Assembly: GCA_035525825.1 (NCBI GenBank)
Contig: DATLDP010000065.1
Span: 4,885 to 68,884 of the forward strand
Source of the DNA: Candidatus Limnocylindria bacterium
Lineage (GTDB): Bacteria; Chloroflexota; Limnocylindria; Limnocylindrales; CSP1-4
Direction: 5' to 3'
Length of the DNA stretch: 64,000 bases
Positions within the stretch are counted from its first letter, which is position 1. The number at the start of each line of letters is the position of its first letter. Made by a program: the position numbers and the translations under genes. Under the pieces are notes generated by a model. It was not told the DNA's origin. It did no database searches and saw only the letters and a list, made by a program, of their open reading frames with translations. This document shows positions 52,546-63,108 of this stretch, piece after piece.

Positions 52546-55326
52546 TCAGGCGCCGAGCTGTGCGCGGAGTCGCGCGGACTGTTCCGCGAGCTCGGCCTCG
52601 AGCTTCCGAGCGCCTTCGACGATGGCGGCCGGGGCGCGCTCGGTGAAACGCGGGTTGGCGAGGCGCGAGCGCGCCCCATCGAGTCGCGCCTGGACCTCGG
52701 CGAGCTCCTTCTCGAGCCGCTGGCGCTCCCGGGCGGCGACTTCCTCGGAGGCGCCGGCCGAATCGCCCGCCGCGGGATCCAGGCTTGCGGAGACCCTGCC
52801 GGCGAGCACCGCCAGGCGCCCGCTCGGGTCGGCCTCGGTTGCCGCGGCGTCGCTCAGACTCGAATCCACCCGGGCCAGACGGTCGATGGCGGGCTGGAGC
52901 GCCGACAGGACCCCGGCCATCTCGGCGGGCGCTCTGATCGAGGCCGCCAGGCGCCGTCCGGGCTCGATGCCGGCCTCGGCGCGGGCGTTGCGGATCCCCC
53001 GGATCAGGGTCAGCACCTCGTCGACCACGCCGTCGGTCGCGGCGGCCGCCTTCCCGACACGGGGCCAGCGGGCCACGATCAGCAGCTCGGGATCGTCCTC
53101 GGCGTGCGGCAACGACGCCCACAGGGCCTCGGTCACGAACGGCATGATCGGGTGGAGCAGGCGGAGATAGGTGTCGAGCGCCGACACGAGGGACCACCAC
53201 GTGGCCTCGCGCGCCGCGTCCGGAAGTGACCCATCGGCCAGCCGGACCTTGGCCAGCTCGATGCCCCAGTCGCAGTACTGGCTCCAGGTCGCGTCGTAGA
53301 GGACCCGCGTCGCCTCGCCGAAGTTGTCGTCCTCGTAGGCTCGGTCGACGGCGGCGACCGTGGCCGCGGCGCGCGCCAGAACCCACTGCTCGGCGGGCCC
53401 CAGCTGCGCCGGGTCCGGCGACTCGCGCCGCGACGCCCGGGCGTCATCGATCGACGCCGGCCGGGCACCGAGCACGAAGCGGGTGGCGTTCCAGAGCTTG
53501 TTGGCGAAATTGCGGCCGTCCTCGAGCCGCTCGCTGCTGAACTTCTGGTCGTTCCCGGGCGACGTGCCGTTGAGCAGCGCGAACCGCAGGGCGTCGGCGC
53601 CGGTCTGGTCGATCGCCTCGAGCGGGTCGACGATATTGCCCTTGCTCTTCGACATCTTCTGGCCGGTCGGGTCCTTCACCAGGCCGTGGAGGTAGACCTT
53701 GCGGAAGGGCGGCTTCTCGGCCAGGTGGATGCCCAGCATCATCATTCGGGCGACCCAGAAGAAGATGATGTCGTAGCCCGTCTCCATGACCGTGCCCGGG
53801 TAGTAGCGCCGGAAGTCGTCGGTGTCGTCGGGCCACCCCAGTGTCGAGAACGGCCACAGGCCGGAGCTGTACCAGGTGTCGAAGATGTCCGGATCCTGGG
53901 TGAGCTCCGAGGCCGGCCGGCCACAGGTGTCGCAGGCCGCCGGCCCCTCGATCTCCGAGGACACGGACACGTGGCCATCGGGGCAGTACCAGGCCGGGAT
54001 TCGATGCCCCCACCACAGCTGCCGGCTGACATTCCAGTCGTGGATATTGGTCAGCCAGTGCTCCCAGGTCTTCTCGAAGCGCGTCGGCACGATCGTCGTT
54101 CGACCGCCCCGCGTCGCCTCCAGCGAGGATGCCGCGAGCGGCTCCGTCTTCACGAACCACTGGGTCTTGAGCCGCGGCTCGATGACGTCATTCGAGCGCT
54201 GGCAGCGGCCCAGGATCATCTCGTGCGGGCGCGCGCCCTCGAGGTCGCCCATGGCCTCGAGCTCGCCGACGAGACGCTTGCGGGCCTCGTAGCGATCCAG
54301 CCCATCGAACTCGGTGCCCGAACCGCTGATCGTGGCGTCGTCGCCGAGGATCGTGAGCATCGGGAGGCCGTGGCGCTTGCCGGTCTGGTGGTCGTCCTTG
54401 TCGTGGGCGGGCGTGATCTTGACCGCCCCGGTGCCGAAGGCTCGCTCGACGACAGCGTCGGCAATGACCGAGACGTCCCGATCGACGAACGGGATCCGGA
54501 CCTTCCGCCCAACGAGATCCCGGTATCGATCGTCCTCTGGATGCACGGCGACCGCCGTGTCGCCGAGGATCGTCTCCGGACGGGTGGTCGCGACCGCGAT
54601 CCAGGCGTCCGGATCGGGGGCGCCGGTCGTCTCGTTCACCAGGTGGTAGCGGATCGTCCAGAGCGTGCCGGTTTCCGGCGTCGGGATGACCTCGAGGTCC
54701 GAGACGCTGGTCCGGCAGCCGGGGCACCAGTTGATCAGGGCTTCGGTGCGATACGCGAGCCCTTCGTCGAAGAGCTGCTTGAACGACACGCGCACGGCCT
54801 TGGCCGAGCCTTCGTCCATCGTGAACCGCAGGCGCGACCAGTCCGCGGAGGCCCCGAGCCGCCGCTCCTGCCCGAGCATCACCTCGCGGGTCTCGTTGAT
54901 GAATGTCCACATCCGCTCGAGGTAACGCTCCCGCCCGAGGGACTCCCGGGTCTCGCCATCTGCCGCGATGATCTTGTCGAGGACGTACTGGGCCGCGATC
55001 GAGGCGTGGTCGAGGCCCGGGAGCCAGAGCGTCGGGTGGCCCTCCATCCTGGCGTGGCGAACCATCACGTCCTCGAGGGTGAGGGTGAGCGCGTGGCCCA
55101 GGTGCAGCGCGCCGGTGATGTTCGGCGGCGGCTGGATGACCACGAACGGCTCTTTGCCGGGCTCGGAGTTCGCGCCCGCGCCGTCCGGGGCGAAGACGTC
55201 CGCAGCCAGCCAGCACTCGTAGATCCGGCTTTCGACGTCAGCCGGGACGTAGGCCTTGGGCAGCTGACTGCCCGGCGCGGCCACGTTGCGCCCCGGCTCG
55301 CTCGTCGTCCCGCGCTCGCTGCTCAC
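52546..55326 (-). CDS. valS: Valine--tRNA ligase
   Basis: It has a HIGH region (PPNITGALHLGH), KMSKS (QKMSKSKGN), a CP1 editing domain and a C-terminal coiled coil. The start is taken as GTG55326, with GGAGG 10 nt upstream. The track start TTG55350 lies inside the T-box terminator U-tract. Confidence 0.9.
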   Translation of the reverse strand: MSSERGTTSEPGRNVAAPGSQLPKAYVPADVESRIYECWLAADVFAPDGAGANSEPGKEPFVVIQPPPNITGALHLGHALTLTLEDVMVRHARMEGHPTLWLPGLDHASIAAQYVLDKIIAADGETRESLGRERYLERMWTFINETREVMLGQERRLGASADWSRLRFTMDEGSAKAVRVSFKQLFDEGLAYRTEALINWCPGCRTSVSDLEVIPTPETGTLWTIRYHLVNETTGAPDPDAWIAVATTRPETILGDTAVAVHPEDDRYRDLVGRKVRIPFVDRDVSVIADAVVERAFGTGAVKITPAHDKDDHQTGKRHGLPMLTILGDDATISGSGTEFDGLDRYEARKRLVGELEAMGDLEGARPHEMILGRCQRSNDVIEPRLKTQWFVKTEPLAASSLEATRGGRTTIVPTRFEKTWEHWLTNIHDWNVSRQLWWGHRIPAWYCPDGHVSVSSEIEGPAACDTCGRPASELTQDPDIFDTWYSSGLWPFSTLGWPDDTDDFRRYYPGTVMETGYDIIFFWVARMMMLGIHLAEKPPFRKVYLHGLVKDPTGQKMSKSKGNIVDPLEAIDQTGADALRFALLNGTSPGNDQKFSSERLEDGRNFANKLWNATRFVLGARPASIDDARASRRESPDPAQLGPAEQWVLARAAATVAAVDRAYEDDNFGEATRVLYDATWSQYCDWGIELAKVRLADGSLPDAAREATWWSLVSALDTYLRLLHPIMPFVTEALWASLPHAEDDPELLIVARWPRVGKAAAATDGVVDEVLTLIRGIRNARAEAGIEPGRRLAASIRAPAEMAGVLSALQPAIDRLARVDSSLSDAAATEADPSGRLAVLAGRVSASLDPAAGDSAGASEEVAARERQRLEKELAEVQARLDGARSRLANPRFTERAPAAIVEGARKLEAELAEQSARLRAQLGA

Positions 55327-55342
55327 CCTGCACCTGCCTCCG

Positions 55343-55599
55343 GGAAACAATGAACCCGCTCGTCCAGCGGACGAACGGGTCGTGGTACCACCTGCTGGTT
55401 CGAGATCTCGCCGGGCTCGCTCATCGCGACCCGGTCCAGCCCCTGGGAGCCGGCGCCGAGGTCTCCTCGTGGCGCGCTATCGGGCGCCGGCCGCATGGCT
55501 CGCGAGTGACGTTCACGCCCCGGTGCCCGCGCGGCTCGCACCATCCCGCGCTCGCTCGTGGCCCGTCCGGGCGCTACTCCTCTCGGTCGCCGCCTTGAG
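55343..55599 (-). ncRNA. T-box riboswitch leader, valine specifier (GUC), terminator/antiterminator type
   Basis: On the minus strand, the Stem I base is GAGAGGAGUAG and there is an AG-bulge/distal loop AGCGAGCGCGGGAUGGUGCGAGCCGCGC. The specifier loop is GUGAAC-GUC-A. The T-box sequence is AGCAGGUGGUACCACGACCCG (revcomp of 55372-55392), and CGGGUCG upstream can pair with CGACCCG to form the antiterminator. The terminator is ACCCGUUCGUCC-gcu-GGACGAGCGGGU (55354-55380) followed by UCAUUGUUUC. A possible promoter is TTCGAC-19 nt-TACGAT (55636-55606). Confidence 0.75.
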
Positions 55600-55779: not shown

Positions 55780-56751
55780 TCAGCCCTTGGCGGCGGCCTC
55801 CGAGAACGCGCGTCGAAGCCCGGCCGCCCCGACGTCGACCGCGTCCCGCGCCTTGTCCACCACGGCTCCCATCCCGAAGAACTCATGGGCGACCCCATCG
55901 AAGCGCTGCGCCGCGACCTCCACGCCAGCACTCCGGAGGCGATCGGCGTACATCTCGCCCTCACTGCACAGCGGGTCGATCTCGGCGGTGATGACCGTCG
56001 CGGGCGGCAGGCCACGGAGGTCCGCGTGCAATGGCGTGGCATGCGGCTCGCTCCGCAGCGTCGCATCCGGCGCGTAGTTGTCCCAGAACCACTGCATCAG
56101 GTCGCGGCCGAGTGGTTTTGCGGCCGCGTGCCGGACGTACGACGGCGTATCGAAGTCCGCATCGACGACGGGGTAGACGAGGAGCTGGTGGAGTGGCACC
56201 GGCCAGCCTTGCTTCAAGAACTCCAAGCAGGTGGTCGTCGCAAGGTTCCCACCCGCGCTCTCACCGGCGATCGCGAGTCGATCCGGGTCTCCACCGAGCT
56301 CTGCGGCGTGGTCGCTGATCCAGCGCGTGGCCGCCACGGCGTCCTCATGGGCAGCCGGGTAGGGATGCTCAGGCGCCTGCCGGTAGTGGCACGAGATCAC
56401 GACGCACTCGGCGGCATTCGCCAGCGCGCGGGCTGAGCTGTCATACGTGTCGATCGTCGCGATCACCCACCCGCCCCCGTGAAAGTACACGAGCACCGGG
56501 AAGGGCCCGGCGCCTTCCGGCGCGTACAGCCGTGCCTGGATCTCGCCTGCGGGCCCTGGAATCGTGAGGTCGCGAACGTCGGCAACCGGCTCGGGCTCGG
56601 TGCTCCTGCCAAGGTCGCGGAGAACCTTCTTCACCGCATCGGCAGGGGTGGGGCCGCTGCGCGCCTCCTGCGGCGAGACGGTGTTCGGGGGCGCGGCATC
56701 GAAGCTGGCCAGGGCATCGAGCACGGCTTGCATCTGCGGATCCACTGACAT
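55780..56751 (-). CDS. Alpha/beta-hydrolase fold-3 esterase/lipase (hormone-sensitive lipase family)
   Basis: ATG56751 gives 323 aa. It has the oxyanion HGGGW motif (VYFHGGGWVI), a nucleophile elbow GESAGGNLA, and a C-terminal DPL...HEF catalytic Asp/His context. Confidence 0.85.
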   Translation of the reverse strand: MSVDPQMQAVLDALASFDAAPPNTVSPQEARSGPTPADAVKKVLRDLGRSTEPEPVADVRDLTIPGPAGEIQARLYAPEGAGPFPVLVYFHGGGWVIATIDTYDSSARALANAAECVVISCHYRQAPEHPYPAAHEDAVAATRWISDHAAELGGDPDRLAIAGESAGGNLATTTCLEFLKQGWPVPLHQLLVYPVVDADFDTPSYVRHAAAKPLGRDLMQWFWDNYAPDATLRSEPHATPLHADLRGLPPATVITAEIDPLCSEGEMYADRLRSAGVEVAAQRFDGVAHEFFGMGAVVDKARDAVDVGAAGLRRAFSEAAAKG

Positions 56752-56891
56752 GACGGACTCCAGGGTTGTTGAGCTGGTTGCCCACAGTAGGACCGGACGC
56801 GTTCCGTGCATCCTCTGGAGGCCCTGGCGAGGTTGCATCCTTCTGGCGAACAGAAGGGACCCCAAGCGCTAGGGGCGCGACAGCGAAGGCG

Positions 56892-57617
56892 CTACTCGAC
56901 GAAGCAGCCTCTGGGTGCCGCCGAAGGTCGTGACTCCTCGGGCGACGCGGCGAGGGTCTCAACCAGGCCGGCGACGACCTGGAGCTTCGGGACGGTGCCG
57001 CGTGGGCCTTCGCTTGTCTGGAGGATCAGGCGCCCCTGATCCGGCGGGACTCCCTGCGCCGCCGAGCGATCGGTCGCATGCCGCAGGACCTCCGAGATGC
57101 GGTATCGGTAGCGGATGTTCGCGGTCGAGTAGACGTCGACCATCGCCCCGATGAGCTCCGCGCCGTCAGCCCGTTCCGAAGCCAGGAGGAGCTCCAGCAA
57201 CATGCCCTCGCGGGCGTGGCCGTAGATCCAGGTGGTCGCTCCAAGGCGACCGGGGTACGGGAAGGTCGTCAGGTACTGCGCGACGTCGCACAGTGGGTAA
57301 TCGGCGGGATTGCCCGGCACGGTTGCGTCTCCGGAGATGACGGGGAGGTCGATCCGGAGGTCCGGCATGACCACACGGGACGGGACGTCGGTCGGCCGGT
57401 TCGACACTGGCGGCCCGGAGGGGCCCATCGACGCTGGCGACGCGGAGGTTGTCATCACGGTCGCCGTCGGAAGCTGGGTGGCAAGGGCGCCGGCCGGAGT
57501 CCCCTGCGGGGTCTGGGCAGCGAGACTCGTGGCGCCAGCCCCACCGCCGCACGCCGCAAGCGTGATGGCGACCAGGGCCGTCACGATCACCTGGGACGCA
57601 CGGTTGGGGGTTGACAT
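56892..57617 (-). CDS. Sortase-fold lipoprotein lacking the canonical active-site cysteine
   Basis: ATG57617 gives MSTPNRASQVIVTALVAITLAAC (lipobox). It is followed by a sortase-like layout: PDLRIDLPVISG, WIYGHAREG, VDVYSTANIRYRYRISEV, then GRLILQTSEG where TLxTC is expected. Upstream alternative starts fall inside a strong hairpin. Confidence 0.5.
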   Translation of the reverse strand: MSTPNRASQVIVTALVAITLAACGGGAGATSLAAQTPQGTPAGALATQLPTATVMTTSASPASMGPSGPPVSNRPTDVPSRVVMPDLRIDLPVISGDATVPGNPADYPLCDVAQYLTTFPYPGRLGATTWIYGHAREGMLLELLLASERADGAELIGAMVDVYSTANIRYRYRISEVLRHATDRSAAQGVPPDQGRLILQTSEGPRGTVPKLQVVAGLVETLAASPEESRPSAAPRGCFVE

Positions 57618-57630
57618 GGCTGGACGTGAA

Positions 57631-57664
57631 ACGGCCGGCGCCTGCATTCGCAGGCGCCGGCCGT
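57631..57664 (-). terminator. Strong stem-loop after the surface-protein gene (possible terminator/attenuator)
   Basis: acGGCCGGCGCCTGC-attc-GCAGGCGCCGGCCgt forms a 15-bp stem. On the minus strand it is followed only by TTCAC, so the U-tract is weak. Confidence 0.45.
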
Positions 57665-57678
57665 TCATCCCATCGTGG

Positions 57679-58455
57679 CTAGGCGTTCCGGCGACGAAGG
57701 GCGAACCCAACGCCGAGGAGGCCGAAGAGCATCCCGCCGAGGATCGGCAGGACGGGAATGTTCGAGGTCGTGCTCTCGGACACGGTGTCCGTCGCGGGCG
57801 ACTTCTCGAAGTTGTAGATGTGCAGCATGGCCTGATTGTCGTCGTCGCCCGACAGGTCGAGCGTGACGGTTGAAGAGGAGGCGTCGAAGTCGGCGCCGGT
57901 CCCTGCGTCATCGCCAGTAGCCTGGAGGGCCTTGGGCGTCAGCAGCATGGTCCCGAACTTCCAGCCGTTCGGAGGGGTGGTCTCCTTGACCGTGAGCTCA
58001 CCGACGGCGAGGTCGCTGAAGACATAGTGCGAGATGTCGAGGCAGACGTCGTCGGTCTTCTGGCCGTCGCCGTTCGCGTCCCGATCGATGTCGGTCTCGC
58101 ACAGCTTGGCGGCCATGAACTTGGCGTCGGCGAGGGTCTGGACGTCGCCGTTCTTGTCGGTGACCTTGAAGTCGAAGTCAACCGGGGTGCCGGCGTTGCC
58201 GTCCGTGATCGAATCGCCGTCGTCCGTGAGGACGATGGTGGGACACGCCAGGACGGTCAGCGCGAGTGCCGTGATCTCGTCGCCGTTGGCCTGCGCCACG
58301 ATGGCGTCGAAGTCCGCCTGGTTCTTGATCGGCTGCTCGGTACAGGCGTGCTTCATGATCATGAGCGTTCCCGCGTCGCCGGACGCGGCGGATGCCGGCA
58401 CTGCTGCTGCGACCAGCAGGCCTGCGGCCAGCACGAGGGCAAAGGATCGTCGCAT
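57679..58455 (-). CDS. Secreted surface protein with a Cna-B/prealbumin-like domain and a tripartite C-terminal anchor
   Basis: 258 aa. The signal peptide is MRRSFALVLAAGLLVAAAVPASA. It has four Cys, an acidic Ca-binding-like stretch (DIDRDANGDGQKTDD), ELTVKETTPPNGWKF...MLHIYNF, then SPATDTVSESTTSN + IPVLPILGGMLFGLLGVGFAL + RRRNA. AGGAGAG lies upstream of ATG58455. Confidence 0.6.
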   Translation of the reverse strand: MRRSFALVLAAGLLVAAAVPASAASGDAGTLMIMKHACTEQPIKNQADFDAIVAQANGDEITALALTVLACPTIVLTDDGDSITDGNAGTPVDFDFKVTDKNGDVQTLADAKFMAAKLCETDIDRDANGDGQKTDDVCLDISHYVFSDLAVGELTVKETTPPNGWKFGTMLLTPKALQATGDDAGTGADFDASSSTVTLDLSGDDDNQAMLHIYNFEKSPATDTVSESTTSNIPVLPILGGMLFGLLGVGFALRRRNA

Positions 58456-58691: not shown

Positions 58692-60005
58692 TCAGGCGGT
58701 GGCGCTCCGCTCAGCGAGCCAGTCCTCGTAGTTCGTCTCGTCGACGCCCTTCTCGACCTCGCTCTTGGTGAGCAGGAGCGGGACGCGTCCGGACCGGATC
58801 GTCTCCTCGGTGATGATGCATTTGCGGACGTCTGACCGCTCCGGGATGTCGTACATCACCTCGAGGAGCGCCTCCTCGACGATCGAGCGGAGCGCCCGCG
58901 CGCCGGTCTTCCGATCCAGGGCGACATCCGCCGCCGCCCGCAACGCGCCCGGCGTGAACACCAGCTCCACCTTGTCCAACGACAGGAAGCGCTGGAACTG
59001 GCGTGCGACCGCGTTCTTGGGCTCGGTAAGGACGCGAACGAGGTCGTCCGCGGTCAGCGCCGTGAGCGTGACGATGACGGGCAGCCGGCCCACGAACTCC
59101 GGGATCAGGCCGAACTTCAGGAGGTCCTCCGGCATCAACTTCTCGAGGACCTTGCCCCGCTCGATGGAGCCCACCGCGGCCGACTCGGAGCCGAAGCCGA
59201 TGGAGCGCTTCCCAACCCGCTCCTCGACGATCTTCTCGAGCCCGTCGAAGGCACCGCCGCAGATGAACAGCACGTTCGTGGTGTCGATCTGGATGAAGTC
59301 CTGGTGGGGATGCTTGCGGCCGCCCTGGGGCGGCACGTTCGCGACCGTCCCCTCGAGGATCTTCAGGAGGGCCTGCTGGACGCCCTCGCCCGACACGTCA
59401 CGGGTGATCGAGGGGTTGTCCGCCTTGCGTGCGATCTTGTCGATCTCGTCGATGTAGATGATCCCGCGCTGCGCCCGGGCGACGTCGAAGTCCGCCGCCT
59501 GGATCAGCCGCAGCAGGATGTTCTCGACGTCCTCGCCGACATAGCCCGCCTCGGTGAGGGAGGTCGCGTCCGCGATGCAGAACGGCACGTCCAGCACTCG
59601 CGCAAGGGTCTGGGCCAGGAGCGTCTTGCCGGACCCGGTGGGACCGACGAGTAGGACGTTGGACTTCTGGAGCTCGACCTCGTCCACCGAGTGGCCGGCG
59701 TTCACTCGCTTGTAGTGGTTGTAGACCGCCACGGAGAGGACCTTCTTGGCCTTCTCCTGGCTGATCACGTACTGGTCCAGGGCGGACTTGATCTGGCGAG
59801 GGTTCGGGAGCTTGGCCACGGCCGGCTTGGCCTTCGGCTGCTCCAGCATCTCCTCTTCAATGATCTCCTGGCAGAGGTTGATGCACTCGTCGCAGATGTA
59901 CACGCCCTGCCCGGCGATGAGCTTCCGGACCTGCTCCTGGCTCTTGCCGCAGAACGAGCAGCGATACGGGACCTTGGTGCCCTTGCTCCCGCTGGTCGTG
60001 CTCAC
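58692..60005 (-). CDS. clpX: ATP-dependent Clp protease ATP-binding subunit ClpX
   Basis: 437 aa with an N-terminal zinc-binding domain ([26 protein letters not shown]), Walker [15 protein letters not shown], and IYIDEIDKI. Confidence 0.95.
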
Positions 60006-60054: not shown

Positions 60055-60756
60055 TCAGGACTTCGACTTCTTCTGCACCTCTGGCGCCGCGTCGACTTCG
60101 GCTTCCGCCGGCTCGGTCACGCTGGAGCCCTCGCCACCGGACAGTCCGGCATCGTGAGCCGCGGCGATCAGCGACGTCCCCTGGAGGTTGTAGACCGCAT
60201 CGATGATGCCATAGTCCTTTGCCTCGTCCGGGCTCATGAATCGGTCTCGCTCGGTATCCTGGACCACCTTCTCGAGCTTCTGCCCAGTGTGACGGGCGAG
60301 GATCTGGTGGTTCAGGTCGACGAGGGTCTCCCACTCCTTCATCTGGATCAGCGCGTCCATCGGCGCGCCCCGAAACCCGCCGGATCCCTGGTGGATCATG
60401 ATCCGGCTGTGGGGCAGCCCGTAGCGCTTGCCCTTCTCCCCGGCGGCGAGCAGCACGGAGGCCATGGATGCCGCCTGGCCGATGCAGATCGTGCTCACCG
60501 GCGCGCGCAGGTACTGCATCGTGTCGTAGATCGCGAGGCCCGCCGTCACCACGCCGCCGGGCGAGTTGATGTAGAGGCTGATGTCCTTCTCGGGATCCTC
60601 GGACTCGAGGAACAGCAGCTGGGCGATGATCAGGTTCGCGAGGTGGTCCTCGATCACGTCACCCAGGAAGATGATCCGCTCCTTCAGCAGGCGCGAGTAG
60701 ATGTCGTAGGCGCGCTCCCCCCGGCTGGAGGATTCGATGACCATCGGCACGAGCAT
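60055..60756 (-). CDS. clpP: ATP-dependent Clp protease proteolytic subunit
   Basis: 233 aa with [20 protein letters not shown], the catalytic Ser context ([11 protein letters not shown]), MIHQ, and an Ala/Glu/Lys-rich C-terminal extension of about 35 aa. Confidence 0.95.
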
Positions 60757-60812: not shown

Positions 60813-62168
60813 CTAGCTGACGCCCGCATCGAGGGCGACGGGCTCGTCCTGCTCAGCGTGCGGCAGCGGGGGATGCTCAGGATGGGCGGCGAGCCACTCG
60901 TCGACAAGCTTCTCGACGAGGCGGCTGCGGCGAAGGGTGCTCCGGATGAAGCTCCGGCCGCGCTCCGATTCGAAGTAGCCGAGGGTCCGTCGATCGTTGC
61001 CGTAGCGGCTCCGGGCCTGCGCGATCTCGCCCTCGATGTCGGCGTCGGAGATCTCCACGCCCTCGGCCTCGGCGACCTTCGAGAGGACGAGAAGGGTCTT
61101 CACCCGCTTCTCGGCGCGGGGATGGAAGTCCGTGTGGAGGTCTGCCTCGGTCTTGCCGGCCACCTTGAGGTAGGCCGCTTCGTCGACCCCCTGGCGTGCG
61201 AGCGACCCGCGCAGCTCGTCATGCATGATCTCGACCTCCTGGTCCACCAGGACGTCGGGCAGCTCGACGGTCGCGTTGGCCGTCGCGTACTCGATGATCT
61301 TGTCAGCGAACTCGTGCCGCGCGCGATCGAGCGCGTTGCGCTCGAGGCGGGCCTTGATCTCGGTCCGGAGCCCCGCGAGGTCCTCGAAGCTGCCGAGGGA
61401 GGCCGCGAACTCGTCGTTTTCCGGCGGGAGGATCTTCTCGCGCAGCTCCTTGAGCTCGACCTCGAACCGGGCGGCCTGGCCGGCGAGGCTCGCCTCGGGG
61501 TAGTCTTCGGGGAAGGCGATGTCGAACGCGGTCGATTCGCCGACCTTGAGGCCGACGATGTTGGCCTCGAAGCCGGGGATGAGGCGCTCCTCGCCGAGGA
61601 TCAGGGGCATCCGCTCGGTTGAGCCGCCCTCGAATGGGACCCCGTCGCGGGTGCCTTGATAGCCGATCACCACGTAGTCGCCGTTCTGGGCCCCGCGACC
61701 CTCCACGGGTCCGAGGCTGGCGTTCTGGTCGCGCAGCTCCTCGATGACCTTGGCGACCTTGGCGTCGTCGATCGTCTCGATCTCGGGCGTGAAGTTGAAC
61801 CCGCGGTAGTCCCCGAGCTCGACGTCCGGACGGACCTGGACGACCGCCGTGAAGATGACCGGTTTGCCCTCTTCGCCCTGCTCGACGTTCACCTCGGCCT
61901 GGGTGAGTGGCAGGATCTCCTTCTCGACGAGGGCGTCGCGGTAGGCCTTCTGGACCAGGTGGTCCATCGCCTCCTCCATGACGGCCTCGGAGCCGACGAC
62001 CCGCTCGACGACTGCGCGCGGCGCCTTGCCGGGCCGGAAGCCGTGGATCTTGGTGCGCTGCGAGAGGTGGCGAACGGCCTGGGAGATGGCGCCGTCGAGC
62101 TTCTCGGCGGGGACCTCGACGCGGACGTTCAGGGAGCTCTTGGGAGCGGGGGTCACGGTGACGTTCAT
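60813..62168 (-). CDS. tig: Trigger factor
   Basis: ATG62168 gives 451 aa. It has the ribosome-binding signature [15 protein letters not shown], an FKBP-type PPIase domain ([14 protein letters not shown]) and a C-terminal arm. The upstream 135 codons of track ORF 60813-62573 are R/A-rich shadow covering a repeat region. Confidence 0.9.
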
Positions 62169-62182
62169 CGCCGCCGAGTATA
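62166..62182 (-). promoter_or_regulatory. Candidate leaderless or near-leaderless promoter/start of tig (TATACT-8 nt-ATG)
   Basis: The minus strand reads gcaccTATACTcggcggcgATGaacgtc. The -10-like hexamer is the revcomp of 62177-62182. There is no SD between it and the ATG. Confidence 0.4.
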
Positions 62183-62267
62183 GGTGCGGCGCCCGTTCCG
62201 ACCGGCACGATGACCGAGCGCGGCCGCCGACCCGCCGCCCGCCGCCTGCCGCCCACTGAGCGGCGCC

Positions 62268-62500
62268 GTTGGTCCACCCATGGCGCATCTGACCGGCGGT
62301 CAGCCCGAATCGGCCGGCCTGGCGTCTCCTACTGGTGGATTGGTCCGCTGGCGGCGCATACGACCGGCGGCGACGGCGTTTCGGACCCCTTGGCGCTTTT
62401 CGCCGGTCGATTGGTCCGCCGACGACGCATCTGACCGGCGGCGACCTCGAATGGGCCGAGCCGTGACAGCTCGCCGGTTGATTGATCCATGGGCGGCGCA
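62268..62500. repeat. Degenerate ~71-bp tandem repeat (3 full units plus one partial) in the tig upstream region
   Basis: Units start near 62268, 62338, 62409 and 62480. Each has the core (GA)TTGGTCC-N7-9-GCGCAT(C/A)(T/C)GACCGGCGG: ttggtccacccatggcgcatctgaccggcgg, gattggtccgctggcggcgcatacgaccggcgg and gattggtccgccgacgacgcatctgaccggcgg. The fourth copy, gattgatccatgggcggcgcacc, is decayed. Confidence 0.65.
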
Positions 62501-62553
62501 CCGCGAGGTCCGCGACGGCCGCCTCGCGCGCGGCGCGCCGCTGGCGCGACGGG

Positions 62554-63108
62554 TCAGTCCGGGACGGCCTCATCGTCGTCGGCGTCCGCGTCAGCGCCAG
62601 CCTTGTCCTTGCCCGACTTGTCCTTGCACTGGCCCGGCGGGAAGCAGTCGCCGAACTTGGCCTTCATGCGATCGGCCTTCTCCTGCGACCAGCCAGGGTG
62701 GCGCTCCCCAACCTGCTTCCAGCCACCCGCCCAGGGCGGCTTACCGGCCTCGCGCAGCGCCGTACCGTCGATCGAGATGACGTCCACGTCAGTGGAGCCT
62801 TCCGCGATCTCGCCCTCGACCTTCACGGACTTGCCGACGAAGGGCTTGAGGGGATAGGCGTCACCGAAGAACCAGGTCGGCCCGGCCTCGAGCGTGTAGG
62901 TCGTCCCGCCGTCCGCGAGCGTGTAGGTCGCCTTGCCGTCAGCATCGGTCGCCGACTCGATCGTCCCGTTCAGGGTGATCGGCGCCTTCGCGGGCTTGTC
63001 CTTGGCCTGGCCCGGTGGCGACGACGGCTTCGCGGCGAGCACCGGCACCGCGACGACGATCGCGAGCACGGCGAGCGCGATGATCAGGACGAGGGGGCGA
63101 CGCTTCAT
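62554..63108 (-). CDS. Secreted hypothetical protein with Lys/Asp-rich tail
   Basis: ATG63108 gives MKRRPLVLIIALAVLAIVVAVPVLAA (signal peptide). A beta-rich core follows (ITLNGTIESATDADGKATYTLADGGTTYTLEAGPTWFFGD...VKVEGEI), then WAGGWKQVGERHPGW and a charged tail. No family recognised. Confidence 0.55.
   Translation of the reverse strand: MKRRPLVLIIALAVLAIVVAVPVLAAKPSSPPGQAKDKPAKAPITLNGTIESATDADGKATYTLADGGTTYTLEAGPTWFFGDAYPLKPFVGKSVKVEGEIAEGSTDVDVISIDGTALREAGKPPWAGGWKQVGERHPGWSQEKADRMKAKFGDCFPPGQCKDKSGKDKAGADADADDDEAVPD

Follow-up and report, generated by a model that had tools for sequence, protein, structure and literature searches.

A conserved serine at the cysteine position of a predicted sortase-fold lipoprotein from Limnocylindria, and a candidate sorting tail on the neighbouring protein

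Can the sortase fold, whose catalytic cysteine is normally essential, exist with a conserved serine in its place, and does the gene beside such a protein encode its substrate? This question was raised by two adjacent genes of a soil/freshwater bacterium of the Limnocylindria (Chloroflexota), located in a 64-kb stretch of DNA (64,000 nucleotides, hereafter the window; contig DATLDP010000065.1 of assembly GCA_035525825.1). An earlier note, made by eye from the sequence, had described a sortase-like lipoprotein with Ser in place of the TLxTC cysteine and Lys in place of the arginine, next to a secreted protein with a sorting-type tail lacking LPXTG, and had left open a decayed pseudo-sortase, a base-call error, or a His/Ser variant with its own cargo motif. 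All of the motifs were found in the translations, and the by-eye assignment was confirmed. The Ser codon is AGC at 57012-57014, whereas the note had placed it one base away, at about 57013-57015. The enzyme gene (gene B) and its features, all on the minus strand, are as follows.

56892..57617 (-): gene B, a 241-aa sortase-fold lipoprotein with Ser/His/Lys, identical to NCBI VM451_05720
57549..57617 (-): lipoprotein signal, residues 1-23, lipobox LAAC, with Cys23 at least 90% conserved
57387..57548 (-): low-complexity Pro/Ala/Ser/Thr-rich tether, residues 24-77, unconserved, pLDDT about 47-59, without secondary structure
56895..57386 (-): predicted sortase-fold catalytic domain, residues 78-241
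57288..57290 (-): Cys110 codon (YPLCDVAQY), probable disulfide partner of Cys238
57216..57218 (-): His134 codon (YGHAR), at the sortase catalytic His position at the end of strand 4
57012..57014 (-): Ser202 codon AGC (LQTSEG), at the TLxTC cysteine position at the end of strand 7
56985..56987 (-): Lys211 codon (VPKLQ), at the sortase catalytic Arg position at the start of strand 8
56904..56906 (-): Cys238 codon (PRGC) in the C-terminal extension

The translation of gene B reads MSTPNRASQVIVTALVAITLAAC..., PDLRIDLPVISG, WIYGHAREG, VDVYSTANIRYRYRISEV, GRLILQTSEGP and PKLQVVAGL. Sequence comparison of this single protein with the Pfam Sortase model (PF04203; MEROPS C60) is weak, with E=1.2e-3 and 19.1 bits against a cut-off of 26.6, although the close homologues P0029 (29.3 bits), P0392 (29.3 bits), and P0036 (26.8 bits) pass. 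A single-sequence search against PDB sequences returned only chance hits, an oxidoreductase and a carbonic anhydrase, and a profile search gave only marginal E-values of 0.4-1.7, although all five hits were sortases. In contrast, an AF2 model has pLDDT >90 over most of residues 79-241, and its top 50 Foldseek matches in the PDB are all sortases at E about 1e-7, probability 1.00, and target TM-score 0.5-0.72. Furthermore, the family profile aligns by hhalign to P0404, a Pfam-positive Cys sortase, at 98% probability and E=1.7e-13, with S202 opposite C, K211 opposite R (PRF), and H134 opposite the His of YAHAR. The same register appears against Streptococcus agalactiae SrtA (3rcc; LTLVTC...ER), in which Lys211 aligns to R192. 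In the model, strands end or begin at H134, S202, and K211, which is probably also the layout in SrtA. No sortase class model of NCBIfam (NF033745-8, TIGR01076, TIGR03784) is listed for the window protein even at E<=10, and the relatives P0383 and P0392 score only 12-13 bits on TIGR01076.

The serine is neither an error nor a local mutation. The motif QTS.G occurs in 127/127 domains of the 120 closest homologues, and Ser occurs in 93/93 aligned domains from GTDB species genomes and in 132 of 141 distant representatives with a residue at this column, drawn from 537 hits. These sequences come from independent assemblies, including long-read chromosomes, and both codon classes are used (AGC 74, AGT 5, TCC 4, and TCG 4). 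His134 is present in 94/94 sequences in loci and in 140/145 distant representatives, and Lys211 in 87/93 sequences in loci. The three residues behave as a unit: all 6 sequences with Gly, Pro, or Ala at position 202 also lack Lys/Arg at 211, and 3 of them lack His, whereas 130 of 137 Ser/Cys sequences keep Lys or Arg. A small clade of five sequences (P0383, P0388, P0389, P0374, and P0368; LQTCE/LQACEN), basal in an NJ tree without support values, keeps the canonical Cys, with Lys at the Arg position in 4 of 5 members. This clade passes Pfam Sortase, shares Cys110 and Cys238, and has an N-terminal TM anchor, as other subfamilies do, rather than a lipobox. Cys110 is conserved in 94/94 sequences in loci and 141/142 distant representatives, and position 238 is Cys wherever the column is aligned (91/91 and 130/130). 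DSSP shows two-residue bridges at 109-110 and 236-237, and a disulfide is inferred.

The neighbouring gene (gene A) encodes the candidate cargo, the features of which are listed together with the intergenic region.

57679..58455 (-): gene A, a 258-aa secreted pilin/adhesin-like protein with a C-terminal sorting-type tail, identical to NCBI VM451_05725
58387..58455 (-): Sec signal peptide, residues 1-23, with the cleavage site inferred between VPASA and AS
57784..57801 (-): proposed recognition motif S219-P-A-T-D-T224
57697..57759 (-): hydrophobic helix of the tail, residues 233-253
57682..57696 (-): basic C-terminus RRRNA
57629..57666 (-): intergenic GC-rich hairpin (17-bp stem, GAAU loop) between the cargo and enzyme genes

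Gene A ends ...YNFEKSPATDTVSESTTSNIPVLPILGGMLFGLLGVGFALRRRNA, has no LPXTG or LAXTG, and has 128 detected homologues. The AF2 model of the protein has pLDDT 86. The Cna-B/prealbumin-like assignment in the earlier note is only weakly supported, because Pfam SpaA gives E=2.9e-3, below cut-off, and Foldseek hits to Gram-positive pilins and adhesins are at E 5e-3 to 0.1. The signal peptide was read from the sequence, and its hydrophobic core and P20 are conserved. The tail consists of SPATDT, a 12-17 residue spacer, a TM helix (236-257 in the AF2 model; also detected by hydropathy scan), and RRR, with R256 nearly invariant. The motif lies in a disordered segment just after the last strand, and candidate substrate peptides from this region are ...YNFEKSPATDTVSE..., NFEKSPATDTVSE, and YNFEKSPATDTVSES. 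In 45 sequences down to 39% identity, P220 is invariant and T224 is at least 90% conserved, while the spacer is unconserved. Of 120 homologues, 112 carry P.[TS].[TM], of which 79 are PATDT, and 97 have the motif, helix, and basic tail together. However, about 13 of 120 keep SPATDT but lack the TM helix, which the proposed sorting model does not explain. The LPXTG model TIGR01167 gives 7.9 bits against 15.9 and GVDTG_CTERM 10.8 against 29; the invert_tail and GVDTG_CTERM hits are insignificant and cover only hydrophobic segments. The predicted fold of the intergenic hairpin has an energy of -43.9 kcal/mol (z=-4.9; 0/200 shuffles as stable), and a role as a partial terminator is inferred only.

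Linkage of the two components extends beyond this locus. Within the window, only gene A was found as a tailed protein, and the domain HMM matched only gene B. In other genomes the pair recurs in different neighbourhoods, and the same tail type (PxTD[T/M] or MPD[S/T]) ends at least six unrelated secreted protein families lying beside paralogous Ser-sortases, including SpaA_2/DUF7507/DUF11 giant adhesins, Ice_binding proteins, and a choice-of-anchor P protein. Among ORFs with a TM-plus-basic tail, 20/48 within 600 bp of an enzyme gene carry the motif, against 2/84 farther away, although this comparison counts orthologous loci that are not independent. One member of the Cys clade is also preceded by a secreted protein ending SMPETTTG...TM...RRSRRSRNL; the contigs of P0368, P0383, and P0388 were too short to be informative, and only that of P0389 was informative. 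On the other hand, many paralogues have no adjacent tailed gene. The two-domain homologue P0009 is flanked by DUF4331 and ABC transporter genes, and the many CorA-like genes next to paralogues encode polytopic transporters on the opposite strand without the motif and were rejected as cargo.

Based on these observations, genes A and B are proposed to form a two-gene surface-protein sorting cassette, in which gene B encodes an active, extracytoplasmic Ser/His/Lys member of the sortase superfamily tethered to the membrane by a lipid anchor and about 55 residues, its fold probably braced by a Cys110-Cys238 disulfide that ties down the C-terminal extension. We give this reading a probability of roughly 0.6; no biochemical data exist for any member and catalytic activity, Ser as the nucleophile, the cleavage site, and the acceptor are inferred. 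In the proposed mechanism, gene A product is exported by Sec and held in the membrane by its C-terminal helix and RRR tail, which presents the disordered SPATDT motif just outside the membrane. The enzyme may recognise [S/M]-P-x-T-(D/x)-(T/M) and attack it with Ser202, with His134 and/or Lys211 acting as the base. The helix could then be cut off, by analogy after the Thr, and the acyl-enzyme ester could be resolved either by an envelope amine (anchoring or polymerisation) or by water (release). A bolder version remains tentative and is held to be less likely than not: that Limnocylindria and a few other Chloroflexota anchor or assemble surface proteins by transpeptidation of a new [S/M]-P-x-T-D-T signal to an envelope acceptor through a Ser-His-Lys active site, which would be the first sortase-family transpeptidase that does not use cysteine, evolved from a still-extant Cys/His/Lys sister clade reading the same signal.

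Of the alternatives, a Ser enzyme that works only as a hydrolase, clipping the membrane helix and releasing the cargo, is the least easily dismissed but is considered unlikely. Water could in principle resolve the acyl-enzyme ester, the cargo lineages that lost the helix yet keep SPATDT are compatible with a secreted end-product, and no acceptor is identifiable from sequence. However, every characterised relative in this fold is described as a transpeptidase (PMC4155245, PMC8225981), the cargo types are adhesin-like repeat proteins with pilin-like folds that are normally surface-attached, and the Cys sister clade uses the same signal type. A catalytically dead pseudo-sortase, retained as a binding or chaperone module for the neighbouring tail, is more doubtful still. 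Replacement of the catalytic Cys is the classic signature of a pseudo-enzyme, the catalytic Arg is also replaced, and Gly, Pro, and Ala variants exist, but a merely tolerated residue would drift, whereas positions 134, 200-204, and 211 are invariant or nearly so, and only 6 of about 141 representatives show decay, which in those is coordinated and suggests catalytic constraint on the remaining sequences.

It is also improbable that the tail of gene A is an ordinary stop-transfer anchor whose adjacency to gene B has no functional meaning. No processing data exist and the NCBIfam sorting-domain models do not score the tail significantly, but a short motif with an invariant Pro stands in an otherwise unconserved disordered linker, and the motif-spacer-helix-basic architecture recurs on unrelated families specifically next to paralogues of the enzyme. 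A move of the nucleophile to Cys110, which is slightly more conserved than Ser202 in distant representatives, is very unlikely: Cys110 and Cys238 are invariant together, both are present in the clade that retains the LQTC cysteine, P0404 lacks both Cys110 and the C-terminal extension, and the DSSP bridges suggest that the two segments pair, although distances in the model were not measured. Finally, a sequencing error or private mutation, conceivable because AGC is one transversion from TGC and the window comes from a metagenome-assembled genome, is refuted by the homologue census.

Compared with canonical sortases of classes A-F, such as S. agalactiae/S. pyogenes SrtA and Thermobifida fusca SrtE, gene B shares the eight-stranded barrel fold, the order of motifs (I-D-L-P-V..G, the His after strand 4, the xLxT-nucleophile after strand 7, and a basic residue opening strand 8), the extracytoplasmic membrane-tethered location, and genetic linkage to secreted proteins ending in motif, hydrophobic helix, and basic tail. 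It differs in the Ser nucleophile position, in Lys for the catalytic Arg (Arg197 in S. aureus SrtA; PMC4155245), in the Cys110/Cys238 pair with its extension, in the lipobox anchor of this subfamily, and in a signal placed 11-30 residues from the helix, which is longer than in the classical LPXTG signals shown in PMC4155245. The (S/P)PXTG signal of Clostridioides difficile SrtB resembles the present one in its first four positions (SPKTG and SPSTG versus SPATD and SPSTD) and in an acidic residue that follows closely (SPKTGD versus SPATD), and its cargo are likewise adhesin-like surface proteins. However, that enzyme needs Cys209, is blocked by MTSET, and cleaves between Thr and Gly (PMC4155245), whereas here the inferred P1' is Asp, or Ala/Ser in the MPD[ST]A variants. 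Rhombosortase/GlyGly-CTERM and exosortase/archaeosortase systems (Haft; bioRxiv 10.1101/2023.06.07.544157) also pair dedicated enzymes with tripartite C-terminal signals, and rhombosortase shows that a serine protease can be the sorting enzyme, while exo- and archaeosortases share the Cys/Arg/His set by convergence; those enzymes have unrelated, polytopic intramembrane folds, unlike the soluble domain on a tether found here. No paper describing such a Ser enzyme was found in the literature searched, the absence from which is not proof.

Sortases are described as cysteine transpeptidases, and the Cys-His-Arg set is treated as defining (PMC4155245, PMC8225981). A large, conserved clade in which Cys-to-Ser and Arg-to-Lys replacements are fixed under selection, with its own cargo signal, would show that the fold supports serine chemistry, and comparison with the adjacent Cys/His/Lys sister clade could show what each catalytic residue does. 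The system would supply an orthogonal recognition motif and might supply a thiol-independent ligase for protein engineering, and it gives annotators a rule for naming hundreds of "hypothetical proteins" and their tail-bearing substrates. In addition, it opens the question of how surface proteins are attached in an abundant but uncultured class of soil and freshwater Chloroflexota.

The two genes are located on the same strand and are identical to NCBI "hypothetical proteins" VM451_05725 (gene A) and VM451_05720 (gene B) of a Candidatus Limnocylindria MAG, a class that belongs to the phylum Chloroflexota. Every sequence string that the earlier note had read from the two genes is present, although the Ser codon lies one base away from the position given there. 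The relevant features are as follows.

57679-58455, minus strand: gene A, encoding the 258-aa cargo protein
57629-57666, minus strand: perfect 17-bp GC-rich hairpin with a GAAU loop, in the 61-bp gap between the cargo stop and the enzyme start
56892-57617, minus strand: gene B, encoding the 241-aa sortase-superfamily protein
57012-57014, minus strand: Ser202 codon, AGC
52546-55350, 55780-56865, 58692-60005, 60055-60756 and 60813-62573, all minus strand: neighboring ORFs, resembling by eye tig, clpP and clpX upstream, and an alpha/beta-hydrolase (esterase-like) and valyl-tRNA synthetase downstream

The hairpin folds at -43.9 kcal/mol with z=-4.9 and is followed only by GUUUC. It may act as a partial terminator or attenuator that sets a high cargo-to-enzyme ratio; however, the gap is only 10 bp in locus L001, and the feature is therefore not universal.

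Taken alone, gene B scores below the Pfam Sortase threshold (19.1 bits against 26.6, E=1.2e-3), and no NCBIfam sortase class model lists it. Nevertheless, its assignment to the sortase superfamily was settled by structural modeling and profile alignment. An AlphaFold2 model built on 72 homologues has pLDDT >90 over most of residues 79-241, and a Foldseek search of this model against the PDB returned only sortases (classes A, C and E) in the top 50, at E about 1e-7, probability 1.00 and target TM-scores of 0.5-0.72. In addition, a profile of the family aligns at 98% probability and E=1.7e-13 to P0404, a Cys-bearing protein that scores 64.6 bits on Pfam Sortase. This alignment pairs YgHAR with YAHAR, and RLVLQTSEGP..GTVPKLQVVA with RLTLQTCNGWKDDDPRFIVVA, so that His134 matches the His, Ser202 matches the Cys, and Lys211 matches the Arg. 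The same register was obtained against S. agalactiae SrtA, LTLVTCTDPEAT-ERIIV. In the model, His134 directly follows strand 4 (127-133), Ser202 directly follows strand 7 (195-201), and Lys211 directly precedes strand 8 (212-223), an arrangement that appears to correspond to that of His120, Cys184 and Arg197 in SrtA. The N-terminus of gene B is a lipoprotein signal (LAAC), the Cys23 of which is >=90% conserved in this subfamily, and it is followed by a disordered Pro/Ala/Ser/Thr-rich tether.

The Ser at position 202 is not an error, and it looks selected. The 120 closest homologues contain 127 domain copies, all of which read QTS.G. A scan of GTDB species-representative genomes found 209 loci, nearly all labelled Chloroflexota or Limnocylindr-, with several paralogues per genome. 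In the 80 loci fetched from that scan plus earlier ones, Ser is present in 93/93 aligned domains, His134 in 94/94, Lys211 in 87/93, Cys110 in 94/94 and Cys238 in 91/91. An exhaustive profile search of 1.84 billion cluster representatives yielded 537 hits at E<=1e-3 and 141 at E<=1e-30; of the best 150, 141 have a residue aligned at this column, which split as 132 Ser, 3 Cys, 4 Gly, 1 Pro and 1 Ala. The Ser is encoded by AGC (74), AGT (5), TCC (4) and TCG (4), and has therefore been kept across a switch between the two Ser codon classes, which a merely tolerated residue would be unlikely to survive. Some homologues (P0002, P0003, P0006, P0009 and P0012; loci L004 5299-7131, L022 9431-11011, L053 9713-11023 and L073 9230-10678) carry two complete tandem Ser-sortase domains in one polypeptide. 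In L022, a tandem enzyme, a cargo gene ending YNFEGEMPDTATAP and a third single-domain enzyme sit together, which is reminiscent of pilus gene clusters.

Ser202, His134 and Lys211 behave as a functional unit. All six sequences with Gly (P0314, P0325, P0365 and P0370), Pro (P0315) or Ala (P0364) at position 202 (LQTGEGP and similar) also lack Lys or Arg at 211, and three of them also lack His134, whereas 130 of 137 Ser/Cys sequences keep Lys or Arg. These six are probably true pseudo-sortases that arose several times inside the Ser family. In a BLOSUM62-distance neighbor-joining tree rooted on P0404, which is rough and has no support values, a small Cys clade is placed basally, all Ser sequences fall in the derived remainder, and the nucleophile losses are scattered across three or four places. 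The Cys clade comprises P0383, P0388, P0389, P0374 and P0368, with LQTCE or LQACEN. It already possesses Lys at the Arg position in 4 of 5 members, both extra cysteines, and a Pfam Sortase score above threshold as tested for P0383 and P0368. P0404, in contrast, has Arg and lacks both Cys110 and the C-terminal extension. The likely order of events is therefore Arg-to-Lys plus acquisition of the Cys110/Cys238 pair, followed by Cys-to-Ser, and the family is taken to descend from a Cys sortase. Because Cys110 and Cys238 coexist with a canonical nucleophile Cys in the basal clade, and the model shows two-residue bridges at 109-110 and 236-237, the pair is inferred to form a structural disulfide in an extracytoplasmic protein.

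Gene A possesses a Sec signal peptide followed by a confidently modelled domain (pLDDT 86). The PDB matches of this domain are weak (E 5e-3 to 0.1) but are dominated by Gram-positive pilins and adhesins, and the Pfam SpaA hit is sub-threshold. The cargo has four conserved cysteines at residues 38, 71, 119 and 138; the homologue P0213 has lost Cys119 and Cys138 together, which suggests a 119-138 disulfide. Judged by eye only, the conserved loop DIDRDANGDG (residues 122-131; D126, G129 and G131 invariant) looks like a calcium-binding DxDxDG-type loop. In the model, the last strand ends at residue 216, the segment SPATDT... (220-232) is disordered, and a helix spans 236-257. In 45 homologues reaching down to 39% identity, Pro220 is invariant and Thr224 is >=90% conserved, while the spacer that follows is not conserved. 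Among 120 homologues, 112 carry P.[TS].[TM], split as PATDT 79, PSTDT 11, PPTDT 5, PDSAT 5 and others; the residue before Pro is Ser in 86 and Met in 17, and the Pro lies 11-23 residues before the helix. The motif, helix and basic end occur together in 97. About 13 homologues keep SPATDT but lack the hydrophobic helix, a feature the present analysis does not explain. They form two lineages (P0160-P0166, P0181, P0182 and P0186; P0167, P0175, P0191, P0195 and P0200) that end ...LPAARQATARTGGxRIAS or ...A(F/Y)LRAV and could result from a frameshift, a deletion or a secreted variant.

The pair of gene A and gene B recurs in unrelated neighborhoods, with flanking genes including DnaJ and GH43 in one genome, and YHS and GH15 in another. 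In the window, the flanking ORFs look by eye like clpX and an alpha/beta hydrolase, and none of the neighbors in the window is conserved beside the cassette in other genomes. Furthermore, paralogous Ser-sortases sit next to other signal-peptide proteins that end in the same architecture. These include proteins of 700-2469 aa with SpaA_2, DUF7507 and DUF11 repeats ending in PPTDM, PPTDT or PSTDT, two Ice_binding (PF11999) proteins ending in APATDT and PPPTST, a choice-of-anchor P protein ending in CMPDSST, and proteins without a Pfam domain ending in ELPETDT or AMPDSHT. As a control, all stop-to-stop ORFs of >=100 aa with a C-terminal helix and a basic end were examined; within 600 bp of an enzyme gene, 20/48 carry PxTD[TM] or MPD[ST], whereas farther away 2/84 do (Fisher p about 1e-8). 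Orthologous loci inflate this statistic, but at least six unrelated cargo families are involved. On the other hand, one paralogue subfamily of the Ser-sortase (loci L020, L030, L036, L039, L045, L046, L056, L058, L060, L064, L067, L074, L076 and L078) has no adjacent tailed cargo and may be a "housekeeping" copy. It is consistently convergent with a gene about 10-60 bp downstream of the enzyme gene on the opposite strand, the product of which ends ...FGMSEA...YFRRIGWL and by eye looks like a CorA-type transporter. The Cys-clade member P0389 is directly preceded by a 449-aa secreted Pro/Thr-rich protein ending SMPETTTGDSGSDNGG-helix-RRSRRSRNL. The signal type therefore seems to predate the Cys-to-Ser change.

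In the most likely mechanism, in which catalytic activity, the identity of the nucleophile, the cleavage site and the acceptor are all inferred, the cargo is exported and held by its C-terminal helix, and the tethered enzyme binds [S/M]-P-x-T-(D)-(T/M). Ser202, activated by His134 and/or Lys211, would then attack the scissile bond, which by analogy with T|G cleavage in (S/P)PXTG and LPXTG (PMC4155245) would be after the Thr. The acyl-ester could then be resolved by an amine, leading to anchoring or polymerization, or by water, leading to release. Alternative readings are that the protein is a hydrolase-only enzyme or a pseudo-enzyme, that Cys110 is the nucleophile, or that the adjacency of the two genes is meaningless, whereas a sequencing error is refuted.

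Reviews and primary papers describe sortases as cysteine transpeptidases (PMC8225981, PMC4155245). No paper or NCBIfam model describing a Ser form or this tail was found, although this is not proof of absence, and the comparative evidence is strong but without biochemistry. The signal resembles the (S/P)PXTG of C. difficile in the first four positions but differs after the Thr (PMC4155245). By homology, gene B is a member of the sortase superfamily, but it lacks two of the three defining catalytic residues of the family and matches no named class model.
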